In this document: positions 8,667-62,363 of the stretch, in pieces
Layout: each line of letters starts with the position of its first letter
Position numbering within the stretch: position 1 is the stretch's first letter
Sequence record: NC_031934.1
DNA length: 64,000 nt
Direction: 5' to 3' (one strand)
Source: Escherichia phage MX01
The notes under the pieces: generated by a model
Seen by the model: only the letters and a program-made list of their open reading frames with translations
The model's database searches: none
What the model was told of the DNA's origin: nothing
Program-made: the position numbers and the translations under genes

Positions 8667-8704
8667 AATAATTTCCTCAGTTTTAAATTATAATCCGTAG
8701 GACC

Positions 8705-8734
8705 ATTATACTCTGGTCCCAAGAGTTTGTAAAC
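8705..8734 (-). promoter_or_regulatory. T4-type early promoter (GTTTAC, 18-bp spacer, TATAAT) flanked by GGACC/GGTCC inverted repeat
   Basis: Read on minus strand. Confidence 0.5.
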
Positions 8735-18212: not shown

Positions 18213-18234
18213 AAAAAAGGCCCGAAGGCCTTTT
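18213..18234 (-). terminator. rho-independent terminator hairpin (GGCC-CGAA-GGCC flanked by A and T runs)
   Basis: Directly after stop of ORF 18236..19246. Confidence 0.5.
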
Positions 18235-31581: not shown

Positions 31582-31618
31582 TTTATTCTCCATTTCACTC
31601 TGTTGTTTTGATAGGTCT

Positions 31619-31647
31619 ATAGTATCATGCCTATAGACCTTGTAAAC
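31619..31647 (-). promoter_or_regulatory. T4-type early promoter inside an inverted repeat (PeSL-like)
   Basis: AGGTCTATAG / CTATAGACCT inverted repeat spanning spacer and post -10 region. Confidence 0.5.
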
Positions 31648-35421: not shown

Positions 35422-35469
35422 AATATTCTCCTCTCCTCCAAATAGGGAGACCGAAGTCTCCCGGTAACA

Positions 35470-36063: not shown

Positions 36064-36105
36064 AGTATTTCCTTCAGTTGATTAAGATTTATAATCCATG
36101 AGGAC

Positions 36106-36135
36106 ATTATACCCTGTCCTCTGAGGTTTGTAAAC
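36106..36135 (-). promoter_or_regulatory. T4-type early promoter (GTTTAC, 18 bp, TATAAT) within GAGGAC/GTCCTC inverted repeat
   Basis: Minus-strand motif. Confidence 0.5.
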
Positions 36136-40035: not shown

Positions 40036-40058
40036 TTTGATTTCCGTGCGGTTAGTTT

Positions 40059-40100
40059 GTTTACAAGGTCTATAGTATCATGCCTATAGACCTTGTAAAC
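40059..40100 (-). promoter_or_regulatory. perfectly palindromic early promoter element (PeSL-like)
   Basis: GTTTACAAGGTCTATAG-tatcatgc-CTATAGACCTTGTAAAC, 17-bp perfect inverted repeat. Confidence 0.55.
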
Positions 40101-40111
40101 ACCTTTTTAAA

Positions 40112-43507: not shown

Positions 43508-43530
43508 TATAAATATTAATATTATTTATA
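43508..43530. promoter_or_regulatory. divergent pair of late promoters (TATAAATA on each strand) between genes 4 and 53
   Basis: TATAAATA at 43508..43515 (+) and its reverse complement at 43523..43530 (-), within symmetric GCCTCC...GGAGGC. Confidence 0.65.
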
Positions 43531-45897: not shown

Positions 45898-46419
45898 ATG
45901 AGCACAGATTTAGGAGACTCCATGGAAGGAGCCTCAATCGATGTTACGTTTACCGCTCAATTAGAAACAAACGAAACATTAGTTGAAATAAATATAACAG
46001 AATATGAGCCTACAGAAGGCATTATTGTTGATGGAGCTCATTTATATGGAACCTACGAATCTGTATTTGGATTCTCTGAAGATGCCTTGAAATATCGATT
46101 AAACGATGAATTCGAAACTGCAGGTTCATGGAAAGACCTACCGGCCGACAGTAACACTCAATTATACCTCTGGAAAGCCCCTAGTAATCTCCAGAAGACG
46201 TTTTCTTACACAGTCACATTAACCTATGACTTTAAAGAAGAGTCATCAGGAGGTGATACAGGGAACTCAGGCGGTAGTAACTCTAGAGCTGGCGCAGAAA
46301 CCGATCCGCCTCCGGCTCCTGTAAGAAAAACTCTTACTAAGGTTTATACCAAGGTTATAGTGGGTAATTGGAGTCGCTGGGGAGACCAATTAAGAGAATA
46401 TGTATACGCGAGGTCATAA
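45898..46419 (+). CDS. hypothetical protein (T4 5.1 position)
   Basis: ORF between gp5 and gp5.4; start set at internal ATG. Confidence 0.4.
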
Positions 46420-46712
46420 TGTCGGGCTTAAGTTATAACCAATGTGTAACGGCAGGTCATGAAGCATGGCCTCCTACAGTAATAAATGCCACCCAAGGTA
46501 AAGTATTTACAGGTGGCATTCCTGTATTAGTAGATGGCGACCCTATTACAGAGCACACAGAAATTAAAAAACCATATGAAACCCACGGTGGGGTAACCCA
46601 ACCTAGAACATCAAAGGTATATGTTACAGGCAAAAAGGCCGTCCAGATGGCGGACCCTATTTCGTGCGGAGATACAGTCGCACAAGCCTCATCTAAAGTA
46701 TTCATAAAATAG
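46419..46712 (+). CDS. 5.4: PAAR-repeat spike tip protein gp5.4-like
   Basis: 97 aa from ATG 46419; position after gp5. Confidence 0.6.
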
Positions 46713-46720
46713 GAATTAAA

Positions 46721-48679
46721 ATGGCTACTCCTACGAATTACCAATTAACAAGAACCGTTAACGCTATCCCAAAAGTATTTGTGGGAGCTACGTTTGAAGA
46801 GATTAAAAAGAATATTATCGATTGGCTTTCTAGCCAGGATGAATTTAAGGATTATGATTTCGTAGGTTCGCGAATGAATATCCTGATTGACATGTTAGCT
46901 TACAATACCCTTTATATTCAACAGTTCGCTAACACAGCAGTATATGAATCTTTTATCGGTACTGCTAACTTGCGTTCCTCCGTCGTCCAGGCTGCACAGG
47001 ATAACGGTTATTTGCCAAGTTCTAAATCAGCAGCAAAAACGAGTATTATGTTGACTTGTACTCAGGCCCTGAATGAAAAGAATATTCGTATCCCACGTGG
47101 TACTAAATTCTTGGCCTATGCCCGTGATACTTCAGCAGACCCGTATGCTTTTGTTACTACGGAAAACGTTATTGCCGTACGTGATGTCAATAACCAATAT
47201 CTTCCTATTGTATCTTTAGCACAAGGCCGTATTATTCGTACCGAACTTAAGTATGATCCTAAAACCCCTATTCTTATTCGTGACCCGGATATCGATAGAC
47301 AAGAAGTTAAACTTTATGTCGATGGCGCAGAATGGACTAACTGGACTAATAAATCCATGGTTCATGCTGGTAGTACATCAACAATTTACTATATGCGTGA
47401 AACCGTAGATGGTAATACTGAATTCTTCTTTGGTGAAGGTGTTGCTGAAAAATCAGTTGCAGGTGGGGTATTAGAAGCTAATTATATTGGTGGTTTAAAA
47501 CCTGTTAAAGATGCCACCATTGTTATAGAATACCTTCGTACAGACGGTGAAGTTGCTAACGGGGCGGTGGACTTTAGTTATGCGGATTCTTTGGCGTATA
47601 TTACAGTTGAAAAAATTACAGAAAACTATGATGAAAACCCGGATTATGTAGGTGCTGATGGTGGTGGTGACCCTGAAGATATTGAACGTATTCGTGAACT
47701 TGCCGTAGTTAAACGTGAAGCTCAGATGCGTGCTGTAACTGGTACAGATTATGATACATTCGTTTCAGAGCGATTTGGTTCTATTGTACAAGCAGTACAA
47801 ACCTTTACAGACCCAAATAAACCAGGTTACGCCTTTGTTACCATTAAACCTAAATCAGGATTGTATTTGACTGCGGTTCAACGCGAAGATATCCAAAATT
47901 ATCTTTCAGAATTTAACTTGGCACCTATTACCCCTTCGGTTATTTCTCCTGACTACTTGTTCTTGAAGCATAAAATTAAGGTTTCATATGCACTGAACAA
48001 ATTACAGGAATCCGAACAATGGTTAACGGCTCAAATCCTTTCCCAAATAGACCGTTATTATATTAACGAAGTTGAAATATTCAACCACGGATTTGCCAAG
48101 TCTAAAATGCTGACTTATATTGATAATGCAGACCACAGTATCCTTGGCTCTTCGGCTACGGTAACAATGGTTCGCGAGGTATTAAACTTCTTCAAAACAC
48201 CTGAAGCAGGTATTAAATACTATAATCAATACACCAACCGTTCTGTAACTTCTAGTGAATTTGAGTTCGTCCCAACAAACGTATCTGATGTTGTTAAATC
48301 TTACAACGTACGTATTGTTGCCACAGATAAAGACGAACGAGGCGATGGTAAAATGGTTATAGGTCCTTTCCGACCTGGCGATGTAATTGAAAACCAATAC
48401 ATCCAACCTTACACCGGAGATGACTTCGATAAAATGGCAGCGCCTGCAGACCAATCGGTCTACTATGTTATTGGCGAAATTGATTATTACTCGGACTTTA
48501 TTTTCTGGGATATCGCCGCAATAGGCCTTACTTCCGACCGTTTTGAAGTCCAGTCTATTGAACTTTATGCAGGGCCAGACCAAGACAACATCTTTACCAA
48601 AGACGGTTCTTTAATCGTATTTGAAGATGACCTTCGTCCTCAGTACACAACTATAGAGTTGGAACCAATTACAATATAA
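46721..48679 (+). CDS. 6: baseplate wedge subunit gp6
   Basis: 652 aa; NYQLTRT...SRMNILIDMLAYNTLYIQQF...ADGGGDPEDIERIREL. Confidence 0.9.
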   Translation: MATPTNYQLTRTVNAIPKVFVGATFEEIKKNIIDWLSSQDEFKDYDFVGSRMNILIDMLAYNTLYIQQFANTAVYESFIGTANLRSSVVQAAQDNGYLPSSKSAAKTSIMLTCTQALNEKNIRIPRGTKFLAYARDTSADPYAFVTTENVIAVRDVNNQYLPIVSLAQGRIIRTELKYDPKTPILIRDPDIDRQEVKLYVDGAEWTNWTNKSMVHAGSTSTIYYMRETVDGNTEFFFGEGVAEKSVAGGVLEANYIGGLKPVKDATIVIEYLRTDGEVANGAVDFSYADSLAYITVEKITENYDENPDYVGADGGGDPEDIERIRELAVVKREAQMRAVTGTDYDTFVSERFGSIVQAVQTFTDPNKPGYAFVTIKPKSGLYLTAVQREDIQNYLSEFNLAPITPSVISPDYLFLKHKIKVSYALNKLQESEQWLTAQILSQIDRYYINEVEIFNHGFAKSKMLTYIDNADHSILGSSATVTMVREVLNFFKTPEAGIKYYNQYTNRSVTSSEFEFVPTNVSDVVKSYNVRIVATDKDERGDGKMVIGPFRPGDVIENQYIQPYTGDDFDKMAAPADQSVYYVIGEIDYYSDFIFWDIAAIGLTSDRFEVQSIELYAGPDQDNIFTKDGSLIVFEDDLRPQYTTIELEPITI

Positions 48680-48706
48680 ACCTCTTCGGAGGTTTAAGGA
48701 GATTTA

Positions 48707-51700
48707 ATGTCTGTACAAGCGCCTTATGTTACTAGTCTGAGAATTGATAAACTCTCGGCTAACCATGTGAGCATTCTTTGGGATGACGTAGGCGCCAACT
48801 TCTATTATTTCGTAGAACTGGCCCAAACGAAGGATGCGGGTGTAGAAATTCCCGACGATAGATTATTTTGGAGAAATTTAGGTTACACCCCTAATAACGA
48901 ATGGTTTGAAGAGGCATTCATTTCTCCTAATTCATTTTATAAAATGCGAGTTGCGGTGGCCGCCCAGGGGTTTGAGCAGTCTGAATGGGTTTACACTGAA
49001 GAATTTGAAACTTTCTCTACCAACGCATATACATTTGAGCATATGCGTGAATTCACTTTGTCTAATAAATTTATTGAAGAAAAATTCACAAAAAATAATC
49101 AGAATTATGTGAACTTTAATACCGATGCCATTATGGCTTCCTTAATGACGGAAGATTTTAACTTTACGCCAGCGTATTCGCATTTGTCATCTATATCAAA
49201 TTATGTTTTAAAAGCAGACCGATTCCATGAAATCCAAGGAAGCATCCAAGCGGTTTGTAAAGACCCTAAACGTTCTATTTTAATGGAACTTGGTGGTGTA
49301 CTTTACCTTTTAGAAAGGTTCCAAAGTACTGCTAAGGTTTCTAATGATAAAGGGCAGAACTGGCATTATATCCGTTTGTTTAATGACCGAGTAGGTAACC
49401 CTGTTTCACGTACGGCACATTACCAAACCAACTCGACCACTTATGTTCTAGGTTATGACCAAATATTTTACGGGCGTAAATCAAGTGACATTCGTTGGTC
49501 TGCTGATGATGTTAGATTTAGTTCCCAGGATGTAACATTTGCTAAAATAGGTAGCGATATCGACCTTCCATTTGAAATTGAGATATTTGGTTCATACGCA
49601 AAGCTTCCTTTGCCTATTTCCACTATTGCCGAGGCCGTGTGCGCATCTGATGAATTCATTTATGTTGCCGGTAGAGACAGAGTTTATAAAGCAAAAACAT
49701 CCGAGGCCCCTATAGACACCGACCCTAGTTCTCCGACTTATGGAGAGAAGATATTTGAAAGCGGATATTCGACTATCACAGGGAACCCTAAAGCTGTTTG
49801 TTATAAATTAGATTCTATCCAAGGCCATACATTTGCTTTAATTACAGGTGAAGTTAAAGAAGAAAAAATGGACCCTACGGTTGAATCTAATGTGGTCGAT
49901 TCTGAATCCAAAGGTGTTTATTGGTTAGACACTTCAACCGATACATGGACCCGTGTGTTCGGAAACACTGAAGAAGAACGTCGTCGTATAGAGCATGGAT
50001 ATACCAGCATGTCTACCGACGGAGAGGAATTATTTTTCAGTTCAAGCAACTTTAGATATGAAGTAGAGGTTGATTCTGAACTTCCTTTGGAATATCCTGA
50101 AATTGTTACCTCAGCCGTTAAATATGTTAAAGACGAACAATGGATTCATGATAAGCATTATTTGATGATGAGTTTTAGGTCCAACTCTAAATCAGATTTT
50201 AAAGAATTTAAACCGGGGCGTATGGCTTATTATGCCGAACCGTTCTTTAGTTGGTCTCGACGTGATGGAACCCGTTCATGGATTACTACTAGCGACCACG
50301 CGATGGTTGTTTATAACGATGCTTTATACCAGAAAATTATCGACCTGAACAGTGGTTCTTCACCTGAACGTATTGTTCATGAGATTTGGAATAAAGGTTT
50401 TTGTAAAGTCACGTCTCCTAATATAGAATTTAACGGCTTTAAGAAATATTCTTCCGGAATGATGATTCACAAATCTACAGGTGAATTGGTTGGATATTTT
50501 GAATTTGACTATCGCGTGCGTGATGAAGTCCGTGTTATTTGGAAGCCTAAAGAAGTTATGTTTACGGCAGAATTACAAAACCAAGAACATGAAATACCGT
50601 GGAAGCCCAAAGAAGAAGTTGGTGAGCAAGACCCGGACCTCCAACCTTTACTGGTTAAAATGGTTCCAGATAGTTATTTGCTTCAAGATTCTAACTTTGA
50701 AAAATTCTGTGAATACTATCTCCAATTTATTAGTGATGGCTCAGGTACACACTATAATAATTTGTTGAATCTTATTCGTAACCAATACCCACGTGAAGAA
50801 GATTCATGGGAATATTTGTGGTCGGAAATCTATAAGCGTAATATCTATTTGTCGAAGGAAAAACGCGATGAAGTTGTTCGTTTTTTCCAGGCGCGCCAAA
50901 GCGATTTTTGGTCTACTAAAGGTACCGAAGCTTCTTATAAGTTCCTGTTTAAATTGCTTTACAACGAAGATGTCGAAATTGATATCGAGTCCAAGAACTC
51001 TATCGAATATGATATCATCGTAGAATCCGACAATATTAGTGAAGATATCGTAGGCCAAACGATTTATACTCCTACGGGTCGTAGTAATGTTACTTATATT
51101 GAACGTAACTATAAACAAGGTAAACTGCAATGGCGTTTAACCATTCATAACCTTTTAGGTCGTTTTATAGTCGGTCAGGAAATTAAATCTGAACGTACTT
51201 CGTTCAAGGGTATGATTGTACGTGGTGTACGTGGTAAAGAACTTTTAAGTAACAATATCGACTATATCAACCGTAACCGCTCTTATTACGTGATGACTAT
51301 TAAATCTAATCTCCCTACCTCTCGTTATCGCAACGATGTTTTGAGATTTGTCCATCCAGTAGGTTTCGGCTTTGTAGGTATAACTTTGCTTTCTATGTTT
51401 GTTAACGTAGGTTTAACGCTAAAACATACAGAAACTATTATTAATATCCTTAAGAACTACAAATGGGACTCAGGTTTGCCATCTGAATGGTATGATAGAG
51501 TTGCTGTAATAGGTTTTGATGGTAATATAGAACGAGACCCTCGTACAGGTGCTCCAACGTACAACGTAGGACCTAAAGCAGGAGAACCGTTTGATATTCC
51601 TGCTGATTATGATGCAGAAAATGATTTCTCTGTATTCCAAGGTCAATTACCACACGAACGTATTAAAAAGCATAGTCCATTGTTTGACCAAAGTGCTGTG

Positions 51701-51802
51701 ACCTTTGCCAATTGGCGTGCACTGGTTGATAAGCGTCTTAAAGACGATATTGGAAATCCTAGAGACCCTAAAGTTCCAACTCAGGTAAAAATTAATGATT
51801 AA
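48707..51802 (+). CDS. 7: baseplate wedge initiator gp7
   Basis: 1031-aa ORF in the gp6-gp8 interval. Confidence 0.85.
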   Translation: MSVQAPYVTSLRIDKLSANHVSILWDDVGANFYYFVELAQTKDAGVEIPDDRLFWRNLGYTPNNEWFEEAFISPNSFYKMRVAVAAQGFEQSEWVYTEEFETFSTNAYTFEHMREFTLSNKFIEEKFTKNNQNYVNFNTDAIMASLMTEDFNFTPAYSHLSSISNYVLKADRFHEIQGSIQAVCKDPKRSILMELGGVLYLLERFQSTAKVSNDKGQNWHYIRLFNDRVGNPVSRTAHYQTNSTTYVLGYDQIFYGRKSSDIRWSADDVRFSSQDVTFAKIGSDIDLPFEIEIFGSYAKLPLPISTIAEAVCASDEFIYVAGRDRVYKAKTSEAPIDTDPSSPTYGEKIFESGYSTITGNPKAVCYKLDSIQGHTFALITGEVKEEKMDPTVESNVVDSESKGVYWLDTSTDTWTRVFGNTEEERRRIEHGYTSMSTDGEELFFSSSNFRYEVEVDSELPLEYPEIVTSAVKYVKDEQWIHDKHYLMMSFRSNSKSDFKEFKPGRMAYYAEPFFSWSRRDGTRSWITTSDHAMVVYNDALYQKIIDLNSGSSPERIVHEIWNKGFCKVTSPNIEFNGFKKYSSGMMIHKSTGELVGYFEFDYRVRDEVRVIWKPKEVMFTAELQNQEHEIPWKPKEEVGEQDPDLQPLLVKMVPDSYLLQDSNFEKFCEYYLQFISDGSGTHYNNLLNLIRNQYPREEDSWEYLWSEIYKRNIYLSKEKRDEVVRFFQARQSDFWSTKGTEASYKFLFKLLYNEDVEIDIESKNSIEYDIIVESDNISEDIVGQTIYTPTGRSNVTYIERNYKQGKLQWRLTIHNLLGRFIVGQEIKSERTSFKGMIVRGVRGKELLSNNIDYINRNRSYYVMTIKSNLPTSRYRNDVLRFVHPVGFGFVGITLLSMFVNVGLTLKHTETIINILKNYKWDSGLPSEWYDRVAVIGFDGNIERDPRTGAPTYNVGPKAGEPFDIPADYDAENDFSVFQGQLPHERIKKHSPLFDQSAVTFANWRALVDKRLKDDIGNPRDPKVPTQVKIND

Positions 51803-52800: not shown

Positions 52801-52822
52801 AAGGGCCGCAAGGCCCTTTCGG
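52801..52822 (+). terminator. terminator-like hairpin after gene 8
   Basis: AAGGGCC-gca-GGCCCTT followed by TCGGGTTT. Confidence 0.4.
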
Positions 52823-52860
52823 GTTTAATAAATACAGTATATCAATAATGAGGCATACCT

Positions 52861-59896: not shown

Positions 59897-59928
59897 AAAA
59901 GGGCTTCGGCCCTTTTTTGCTATAAATA
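59897..59928 (+). promoter_or_regulatory. terminator hairpin (AAAAGGGCTTCGGCCCTTTTTT) followed by late promoter TATAAATA
   Basis: Hairpin 59897..59918, TATAAATA 59921..59928, gp13 ATG at 59950. Confidence 0.6.
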
Positions 59929-60887: not shown

Positions 60888-61514
60888 ATGTTTTATAGAT
60901 TATACGTGACTGAGTTTGAAACGTCGGACGGATTAAAAATTTATGGCGGTAAAAGACATTCGGATAAATCTAATCCAAAGCTGGATTCATACGTTGGCTC
61001 AGGAACGTATATTTCGAATGCTAAGAAAAAATATGGACGAAACTGTATAAAACAGGTATTATGGTCGAAAGATTTCGGTAATCCGGAATTATTAAAGGAA
61101 GCCGAAGAACTTTTAGTCGATATTCTTAAAGAAGATTTTGCTCAGTGTGTTAATTTGGTAAAAGGAGGACAAGGTGGTCCTTCTTATTACAATCCTAAAG
61201 ATAACCCTAATATAGGTAAAACCCGTTCTATAGAATCAAGAAAAAGAATGTCAGAGGCGGCAAAATCAAGAGAATGGACTGAAGAAGGGCTAAAGCGTAG
61301 AAAAGAATCTACCGCATTAATGTGGACGCGTGTGAAACACCCAGATTTTACCGGTAGTAAAAATCCTGCGGCCAGAGCAGTTAGAGTCGGAGAAATGGTA
61401 TTCTCGACAGGTAAAGAATGCGCCGAGTATTTTGGTATAGTCAAAAGCGCAGTTATTAATAGAATAAAGAATGATAAACCTAAATGGAAGGAGTGGAGTT
61501 ATGTCGACATTTGA
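60888..61514 (+). CDS. GIY-YIG-family homing endonuclease (seg-like) with NUMOD3 and C-terminal HTH-like motif
   Basis: KIYGGKRH...YVGSG core; [19 protein letters not shown]3; paralog of 373..939; inserted between genes 13 and 14. Confidence 0.6.
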
Positions 61515-62281: not shown

Positions 62282-62304
62282 ATGGCGCATGGTGCGCCAT
62301 TTTG
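62282..62304 (+). terminator. terminator hairpin after gene 14
   Basis: ATGGCGCA-tgg-TGCGCCAT followed by TTTT. Confidence 0.5.
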
Positions 62305-62363
62305 AGAGGTGATTTATTTTTGGCCACTGGTACAATTCATCGCTGCGTCGCTATATTGTTTTG

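Follow-up and report, generated by a model that had tools for sequence, protein, structure and literature searches.

The window, by which the whole analysed stretch of 64,000 nucleotides from Escherichia phage MX01 (NC_031934.1) is meant, derives from a Dhakavirus, a JS98/Bp7-like phage of the T4 type. The 1-kb stretch around the hairpin described below is 99.7-99.9% identical to the phages Bp7, WG01, and QL01, and its nucleotide identity to JS98 is 97.8% (1001-nt query). The flanking genes, named according to the JS98 annotation of the homologous locus, encode the baseplate wedge subunit gp6 and the baseplate wedge initiator gp7. The relevant features of the junction are the following.

46721..48679, + strand: coding sequence of the baseplate wedge subunit gp6, 652 amino acids (ORF list; JS98 annotation)
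48677-48679, + strand: gp6 stop codon TAA (ORF list)
48677..48696, + strand: C(UUCG)G stem-loop with a perfect 8-bp stem, TAAACCTC-ttcg-GAGGTTTA (sequence, MFE fold, perfect-stem scan)
48677-48684, + strand: 5' arm of the hairpin, TAAACCTC, including the gp6 stop codon (sequence)
48679-48694, + strand: 6-bp core of the hairpin, AACCTC/GAGGTT (sequence)
48685-48688, + strand: hairpin loop TTCG (sequence)
48689-48696, + strand: 3' arm of the hairpin, GAGGTTTA (sequence)
48680-48706, + strand: gp6-gp7 gap, 27 nt (ORF coordinates)
48696-48701, + strand: gp7 Shine-Dalgarno (SD) sequence AAGGAG, 5 nt before the ATG (sequence)
48707..51802, + strand: coding sequence of the baseplate wedge initiator gp7, 1031 amino acids (ORF list; JS98 annotation)

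Hairpin structure and transcriptional setting

The junction reads ...ACAATA TAA ACCTC TTCG GAGGT TTA AGGAG ATTTA ATG. The 5' arm begins with the gp6 stop codon, which lies inside the stem, three of the eight base pairs are G-C, and the C-G pair contained in CTTCGG at 48684-48689 closes the UUCG tetraloop. The first A of AAGGAG is at the same time the last stem nucleotide, and the stem end is 10 nt apart from the gp7 ATG. A sequence-only reading of this DNA had described a 27-nt gap carrying a 6-bp stem AACCTC/GAGGTT with a TTCG loop, followed by the ribosome-binding site AAGGAG of gp7 without a U-run. The coordinates and the gene context of the gap agree with this description, as does the position of AAGGAG; the GC core is followed by just three T, all of which belong to the extended stem. 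The 6-bp stem is present but incomplete, as pairing reaches 8 bp.

The segment from stop to ATG is predicted to fold into this hairpin only, with a free energy of -9.7 kcal/mol (z = -3.1) that is matched by 0.3% of mononucleotide shuffles, and the pairing probability in the partition function is about 0.99 in every context tried (90-450 nt). With z = -1.3, a 61-nt frame around the hairpin is unremarkable, meaning that the signal is local and nothing beyond the hairpin is structured. The gp6/gp7 hairpin is real and, locally, more than a chance structure.

Hairpins of this kind are over-represented in the window. CTTCGG occurs 36 times versus 19.3 +/- 4.8 expected, and perfect UUCG-loop hairpins of at least 7 bp and at least 8 bp are found four and three times, respectively, where 0.06 and 0.015 are expected from 200 dinucleotide shuffles. 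Of the four with at least 7 bp, two carry T-runs and resemble terminators (59897-59916 on the + strand and 18215-18234 on the - strand); the other two, namely, the gp6/gp7 hairpin and the following one, are located directly before an SD sequence and are devoid of a T-run.

35445..35462, - strand: second arrangement of stop, C(UUCG)G hairpin, SD, and ATG without a U-run, GGGAGAC-ttcg-GTCTCCC, in the early e.6-region cluster

In the homologous 18-kb region of T4, UUCG hairpins of 5 bp or more are absent. Within the window, no second copy of the 23-nt sequence comprising the gp6/gp7 hairpin and the SD is found even with 3 mismatches, and a repeated or mobile element was accordingly rejected. An Rfam scan of positions 48300-49100 at E <=10 returned sub-threshold noise only, the best match over the hairpin being a CRISPR-DR model on the wrong strand (21 bits versus a gathering score of 50, E = 1.4).

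Most genes of the + strand late cluster either overlap or lie no more than 9 nt from their neighbours, and each of the four gaps that measure 27 nt or more (6/7, 8/9, wac/13, and 14/15) contains a stable hairpin. The elements that frame the junction are listed below.

43508..43515, + strand: consensus late promoter TATAAATA before gene 53, the nearest upstream of the hairpin (motif scans)
52801..52818, + strand: hairpin in the gp8/gp9 gap, AAGGGCC-gcaa-GGCCCTT, followed by AATAAATA
59897-59916, + strand: terminator-like hairpin AAAAGGGC-ttcg-GCCCTTTT with a T-run, after wac; end of the late unit
59921-59928, + strand: next late promoter TATAAATA, just after the wac terminator hairpin (motif scan)
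62282..62300, + strand: hairpin in the gp14/gp15 gap, ATGGCGCA-tgg-TGCGCCAT

At the gp8/gp9 junction of T4, a hairpin plus TATAAATA is found. The promoters at 43508 and 59921 are the only consensus TATAAATA promoters near the gp6/gp7 junction on the + strand, and the former presumably is the start of the hairpin-bearing late transcript. Between 45987 and 49802 the + strand contains no TATAAATA with up to one mismatch; gp7 is not preceded by a late promoter within 2.7 kb, nor did the scan reveal a promoter-like site at the gp6/gp7 junction. An octamer overlapping the stop codon, TATAAACC at 48674-48681, was rejected as a late promoter, as it has two mismatches to TATAAATA and is not conserved, reading TATAAGCC in JS98. 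Gene 7, which is essential in T4, would therefore be expressed only by transcripts passing through the hairpin and, since these must read through it, the hairpin would not be an efficient terminator. Stop-codon read-through or frameshifting was likewise discarded; five codons past the TAA the next TAA follows, and a slippery site is absent.

The gene 6/7 junction across T4-type phages

The comparison of 45 IMG/VR loci and five GenBank records revealed three states of the gene 6/7 junction. In the overlap state, genes 6 and 7 are joined by ATGA or TAATG; it is found in T4, where the ATGA overlap leaves zero gap, in RB49, S16, the KVP40 type, and many others. The short-gap state comprises 26-31 nt with the order stop, GC hairpin, 3-6 T, and SD, and is carried by Dhakavirus, Gaprivervirus, Pseudomonas phage PspYZU05, and Aeromonas phages (60AhydR15PP and relatives, 44RR, and Asfd_1); the loop is a tetraloop except for a 5-nt loop in Asfd_1. 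The third state, a gap of 78-80 nt, contains a full terminator-like hairpin, T6, and a spacer, and is typical of the RB43-like group, to which Citrobacter phage Miller belongs; the spacer behind the full terminator measures 50 nt in the RB43/RB16/Miller group. The tail after the hairpin is U3 in Dhakavirus, PspYZU05, and Aeromonas phage 25-like phages, U4 in 44RR, U5 in VR26, and U6 in Asfd_1, in which GGAG follows at once and no space is left for a promoter.

Among the 13 distinct gapped junctions that were compared, no lineage has an unstructured gap, and all 13 contain a stable fold (z = -2.3 to -4.2). The hairpin starts 0-11 nt after the stop codon, within 5 nt in the short-gap forms, and all short-gap relatives carry an (A/T)(A/G)GGA(G/A) motif 0-3 nt after it. 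The hairpin state is always paired with a well-spaced SD in place of the ATGA overlap. According to a neighbour-joining gp6 tree the gapped states fall into three separate clades, with the Dhakavirus/Gaprivervirus clade nested among overlap lineages. The junction is occupied by a homing endonuclease gene in Klebsiella phage vB_KpnM_5N and is deleted in vB_EcoM_005.

Between the window and Gaprivervirus and IME341-type relatives, 28-30 of the 34 nt of the junction (82-88%) are identical, while identity at the third codon positions on either side is only 43-66% in the same comparisons (binomial P about 1e-5 to 3e-4). These identities indicate that the gp6/gp7 hairpin is maintained by purifying selection. 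The outermost pair of the GC core (stem position 4/17) is G-C in Gaprivervirus and the IME341 type, G-U in JS98, and A-U in the window, Bp7, QL01, and WG01, a series which reads as compensatory change. The loop varies, with UUCG, UCCG in L007, UUAG in the IME341 type, and UAAC in Aeromonas phages. When 11 distinct hairpins are aligned, 93% of the cells are paired and both sides have changed in seven of the eight stem pairs, the closing C-G being invariant; these counts derive from a gapless 20-mer alignment by hairpin register, which is partly circular for pair statistics. Register alignment was used instead of a plain MAFFT alignment of the junctions, by which the arms were misaligned between clades. 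The hairpins of different clades may be independent acquisitions rather than homologous structures.

A candidate decay barrier and its alternatives

The gp6/gp7 hairpin is a new instance of the long-known class of intercistronic CUUCGG hairpins of T4. Such C(UUCG)G hairpins, formed by complementary flanks of 2-8 nt, were reportedly described by Tuerk et al. in 1988 (PNAS 85:1364) as having exceptional thermal stability and as stopping reverse transcriptase; most members are not known to have been assigned a function individually. The window element shares with them the UUCG tetraloop with C-G closure, the short perfect stem built from flanks within that range, the intergenic location in a T4-type genome, and the over-representation, whereas T4 itself, having the ATGA overlap, lacks a hairpin at gene 6/7. 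In PMC8948821, with reference to Tuerk 1988, CUUCGG hairpins are described as abundant in T4 intergenic regions, and the gene 32 mRNA as being stabilized by one of them.

The favoured reading, to which we assign a probability of about 0.45, is that the hairpin would act as a decay barrier in the late mRNA extending from gene 53 to wac, with the initiation of gp7 being uncoupled from the termination of gp6. The hairpin and SD segment of about 30 nt stands in this lineage where genes 6 and 7 of T4 have their ATGA overlap. A late polycistronic mRNA would extend from the promoter at 43508 via genes 53-5-5.1-5.4-6-7-8-...-wac to the terminator at 59897, and the hairpin would be read through by RNA polymerase. 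Later, an endonuclease would cut the mRNA downstream, within the gene 7-8 segment, and the 3'-to-5' exonucleases PNPase and RNase II would stall at the very stable hairpin; owing to this stalling, the upstream 53-to-6 segment would stay translatable longer than the gene 7 segment. Initiation of gp7 would occur from its own strong SD (AAGGAG, 5-nt spacing) and not by coupling to gp6 termination. With the stop codon placed within the stem, every ribosome that completes gp6 would have to melt the hairpin transiently, and the hairpin would refold afterwards. What the sequence establishes is the structure, its more than random occurrence, its conservation, its location in the middle of an operon, and the lack of terminator and promoter features; the decay-barrier function and any effect on the gp6:gp7 ratio are inferred from these.

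Precedents are known. Hairpins at the 3' end block PNPase and RNase II and thereby stabilize upstream cistrons, as known from malEFG and other E. coli operons (PMC5927463), and over the whole course of infection the RNase E of the host and 3' exonucleases degrade T4 mRNA (PMC3014915). As in the decay terminators of the malE-malF REP, Rhodobacter puf, and the other operons treated in PMC5927463, a predicted stable stem-loop is located right after the upstream cistron inside a polycistronic mRNA, has no U-run, and would be read through; the gp6/gp7 hairpin differs by its much smaller size compared with REP elements, by its overlap with the stop codon, and by the SD that adjoins it. The sequence-only reading had considered an mRNA stability or processing element. 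This reading is the most plausible one, in view of the purifying selection and of the 3'-protective architecture (PMC5927463). Processing by RNase III is excluded, as this enzyme needs a duplex of about 20 bp, or about two helical turns, whereas the stem has 8 bp only and the 240-nt context fold offers no longer alternative pairing. Literature searches gave nothing usable on RNA ends at late junctions of T4, Term-seq included.

Several observations speak against a decay barrier. The hairpin is absent from T4, RB49, S16, and most relatives, which have the ATGA overlap, and is thus dispensable for baseplate assembly in general; moreover, the loop sequence is not strictly kept among relatives. 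The baseplate contains 12 copies of gp6 and 6 of gp7, a 12:6 ratio that is compatible with favouring the upstream cistron. The stoichiometry argument is nevertheless weak, because the gene of gp8, a protein present in 12 copies, lies downstream of that of gp7, so that the decay-barrier model would put both at the same disadvantage.

An unlikely alternative to a decay barrier is a leaky intrinsic terminator, or attenuator, at which some late transcripts would end after gene 6, so that transcription of genes 7-8 would be below that of genes 53-6. The order of A-tract, GC stem, and T-tract resembles a terminator, the stem-loop itself contains GC pairs, as is required of one (8 bp, 3 G-C), and relatives show graded tails of U3-U6 up to full terminators at the same junction (U4-U6 in 44RR, VR26, and Asfd_1). 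In the window, however, the GC core is followed by TTTAAGGAG, that is, by UU(U) and then AAGGAG, so that the + strand fails the scan criterion of about five or more T in 8, and within the 8-bp stem these U residues pair with the AAA upstream. The position is not the end of a transcription unit, as seen from the + strand interval 45987-49802, in which no TATAAATA with at most one mismatch occurs, and termination would have to be inefficient, as gp7 is without a promoter of its own. The combination of terminator and late promoter that punctuates gp8/gp9 in T4 and in the window, and wac/gp13, has the same type of GC hairpin with flanking A-tract and T-tract, and RB43-group relatives carry a hairpin of exactly this form at the gp6/gp7 junction; the window element differs by having three T only, no downstream promoter, and a distance of merely 10 nt to the next ATG. 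The earlier view that the hairpin is not a terminator is thus supported as far as the letters go, by the missing U-run, the proximity of the ATG, and the late-promoter-free interval.

Rather improbable is a role in the translation initiation of gp7, be it uncoupling, insulation of the ribosome-binding site, 5' protection of the papBA type, or an aid to re-initiation; in the last variant, the terminating ribosome could melt the hairpin and so make the GGAGGU of the 3' arm, which resembles an SD, accessible. The 0-3 nt distance between hairpin and SD in all short-gap relatives would fit such a role, as would the new, well-spaced SD that always comes with the hairpin state and the stop codon within the stem, by which termination and melting are linked; 5' hairpins protecting downstream cistrons are known (PMC5927463). 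In silico, however, the SD has an unpaired probability of 0.42 in the wild type; mutation of the arms gives 0.46 and 0.30, deletion of the hairpin 0.58, and insulation of the ribosome-binding site was rejected, since in the partition function SD and AUG are no better accessible with the hairpin than without it. Furthermore, the SD-like sequence of the 3' arm is missing from the Aeromonas and RB43-type hairpins, and a conserved RNase E-type site upstream of the hairpin is absent. In T4 genes 25 and 38, a hairpin between SD and AUG bridges a split SD and shortens the spacing (PMC3014915). These translation initiation regions likewise combine a hairpin in the ribosome-binding region with a lineage-restricted occurrence in a T4-type baseplate or tail gene; the gp6/gp7 hairpin, in contrast, is located 5' of an SD that already has a spacing of 5 nt to the ATG, by which a split-SD structure is dismissed.

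Equally improbable is that the hairpin has little or no function of its own and is an indel or recombination remnant, the scar of a terminator or a cassette, which persists because it does no harm. The junction is a hot spot for indels, as evident from the homing endonuclease gene and the deletion mentioned above; the hairpin state was gained or lost at least three times and is missing from most T4-type phages, and stem-loop cassettes mediate shuffling in T4-type genomes (PMC4122927). A mere scar is at odds with the far higher conservation of the junction relative to the neighbouring third codon positions and with the G-C/G-U/A-U series. PeSL cassettes consist of a stem-loop and an early sigma-70-type promoter and are located in the hyperplastic early regions of T4-type phages (PMC2839356, PMC4122927). 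With these the gp6/gp7 element shares the short conserved intergenic stem-loop tied to indels between close T4-type genomes, but it occurs only once in the window, resides in the conserved late core, and lacks the early promoter by which these cassettes are defined. A mobile regulatory cassette of the PeSL type was therefore rejected.

A terminator for antisense transcription entering the late gene block on the - strand is most improbable: the consensus scan flags TAAACCTCCGAAGAGGTTTA followed by TATTGTAATT as terminator-like, but the T-tract is weak, the CGAA loop lacks the stability of UUCG, terminator-like calls in the region are at chance level (9 versus 6.8 +/- 2.5), and no - strand genes or promoters are evident from the divergent promoters of gene 53/gene 4 (~43.5 kb) to the window end.

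Meaning of the junction for T4-type phages

A more far-reaching interpretation, which we regard as doubtful and somewhat less probable than a translational role or a scar, is that the module of about 30 nt consisting of stop, GC hairpin, and SD is recurrently acquired for uncoupling. It would convert an ATGA overlap into two independently controlled cistrons, the gp6:gp7 ratio (12:6) being set by differential mRNA decay, and would have been gained independently at least three times, namely, in the Dhakavirus/Gaprivervirus clade, in Pseudomonas phage PspYZU05, and in the Aeromonas/RB43 clade. If this were true, the gene 6/7 junction would constitute a natural experiment in the tuning of operon stoichiometry.

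By itself, the gp6/gp7 hairpin matters little, and its value is comparative and modest. Only the fact that a hairpin and an SD have repeatedly replaced the ATGA overlap at one and the same baseplate junction, namely, in no fewer than three lineages, is mildly novel. For the annotation of T4-type genomes it calls for caution against labelling such hairpins as terminators. The three junction states offer a natural series for the effects of intercistronic hairpins on read-through, segmental mRNA stability, and subunit ratios.

Hairpins and promoter-like elements in intergenic gaps

Further hairpins in intergenic gaps of the window include the following.

52801-52847, + strand: hairpin with a GCAA (GNRA) tetraloop, then AATAAATA, in the gp8/gp9 gap
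40058-40101 and 31613-31640, - strand: GTTTACA-AGGTCTATAG-gcatgata-CTATAGACCT, present twice
8700-8719 and 36100-36121, - strand: further intergenic hairpins with TATAAT-like loops

The gp8/gp9 gap of T4 (locus L002, 13160-13200) contains a hairpin, a T-run and the consensus TATAAATA where the window has AATAAATA, and the late promoter of the window there thus departs from the consensus at position 1. In both minus-strand copies at 40058-40101 and 31613-31640, the -35 box of a T4-type early promoter is joined to a long stem-loop, an arrangement resembling that of the promoter-early stem-loop (PeSL) cassettes of T4-type phages (PMC2839356, PMC4122927).

Coding features of the gp13-gp15 region

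60888-61514, + strand: 208-amino acid ORF between gp13 and gp14, with weak Pfam matches
62304-62318, + strand: start region of gp15 (tail sheath stabilizer), compared with WG01 and Bp7

The 208-amino acid ORF is not present in the close relatives Bp7, WG01 and QL01, and Escherichia phage vB_EcoM_005 is the only GenBank phage sharing it. It weakly matches the Pfam models for the DNA-binding domain of I-TevI and for NUMOD3; together with a GIY-YIG-like sequence at the N-terminus, these matches indicate that it probably encodes a homing endonuclease of the Seg type.

The apparent start codon of gp15 in the window is the ATT at 62316. ATG occupies the matching position in WG01; Bp7 has ATT as well, and its annotated start is shifted 16 codons downstream. 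The conservation of these 16 in-frame N-terminal codons (IFGHWYNSSLRRYIVL) and of the SD sequence GAGAGG suggests that AUU is used as start codon.

The gp6/gp7 junction in other T4-type phages

In vB_EcoM_005 (155,101 bp; locus L006, 4340-4350), the 3' end of gp6 is fused in frame to codon 45 of gp7, and the entire junction is absent, hairpin included; the segment has been deleted in this phage or else was lost through faulty assembly of that record. In Aeromonas phage 60AhydR15PP and its relatives (L033-L035), the loop of the junction hairpin is UAAC, identical to that of the T4/RB69 gp43 translational operator (PMC3014915); this match is probably coincidental. Klebsiella phage vB_KpnM_5N (MZ890186.1, hit H79) carries between its gp6 and gp7 a gene annotated as a putative homing endonuclease (150754-152004), so the junction also serves mobile genes as an insertion site in other T4-type phages.
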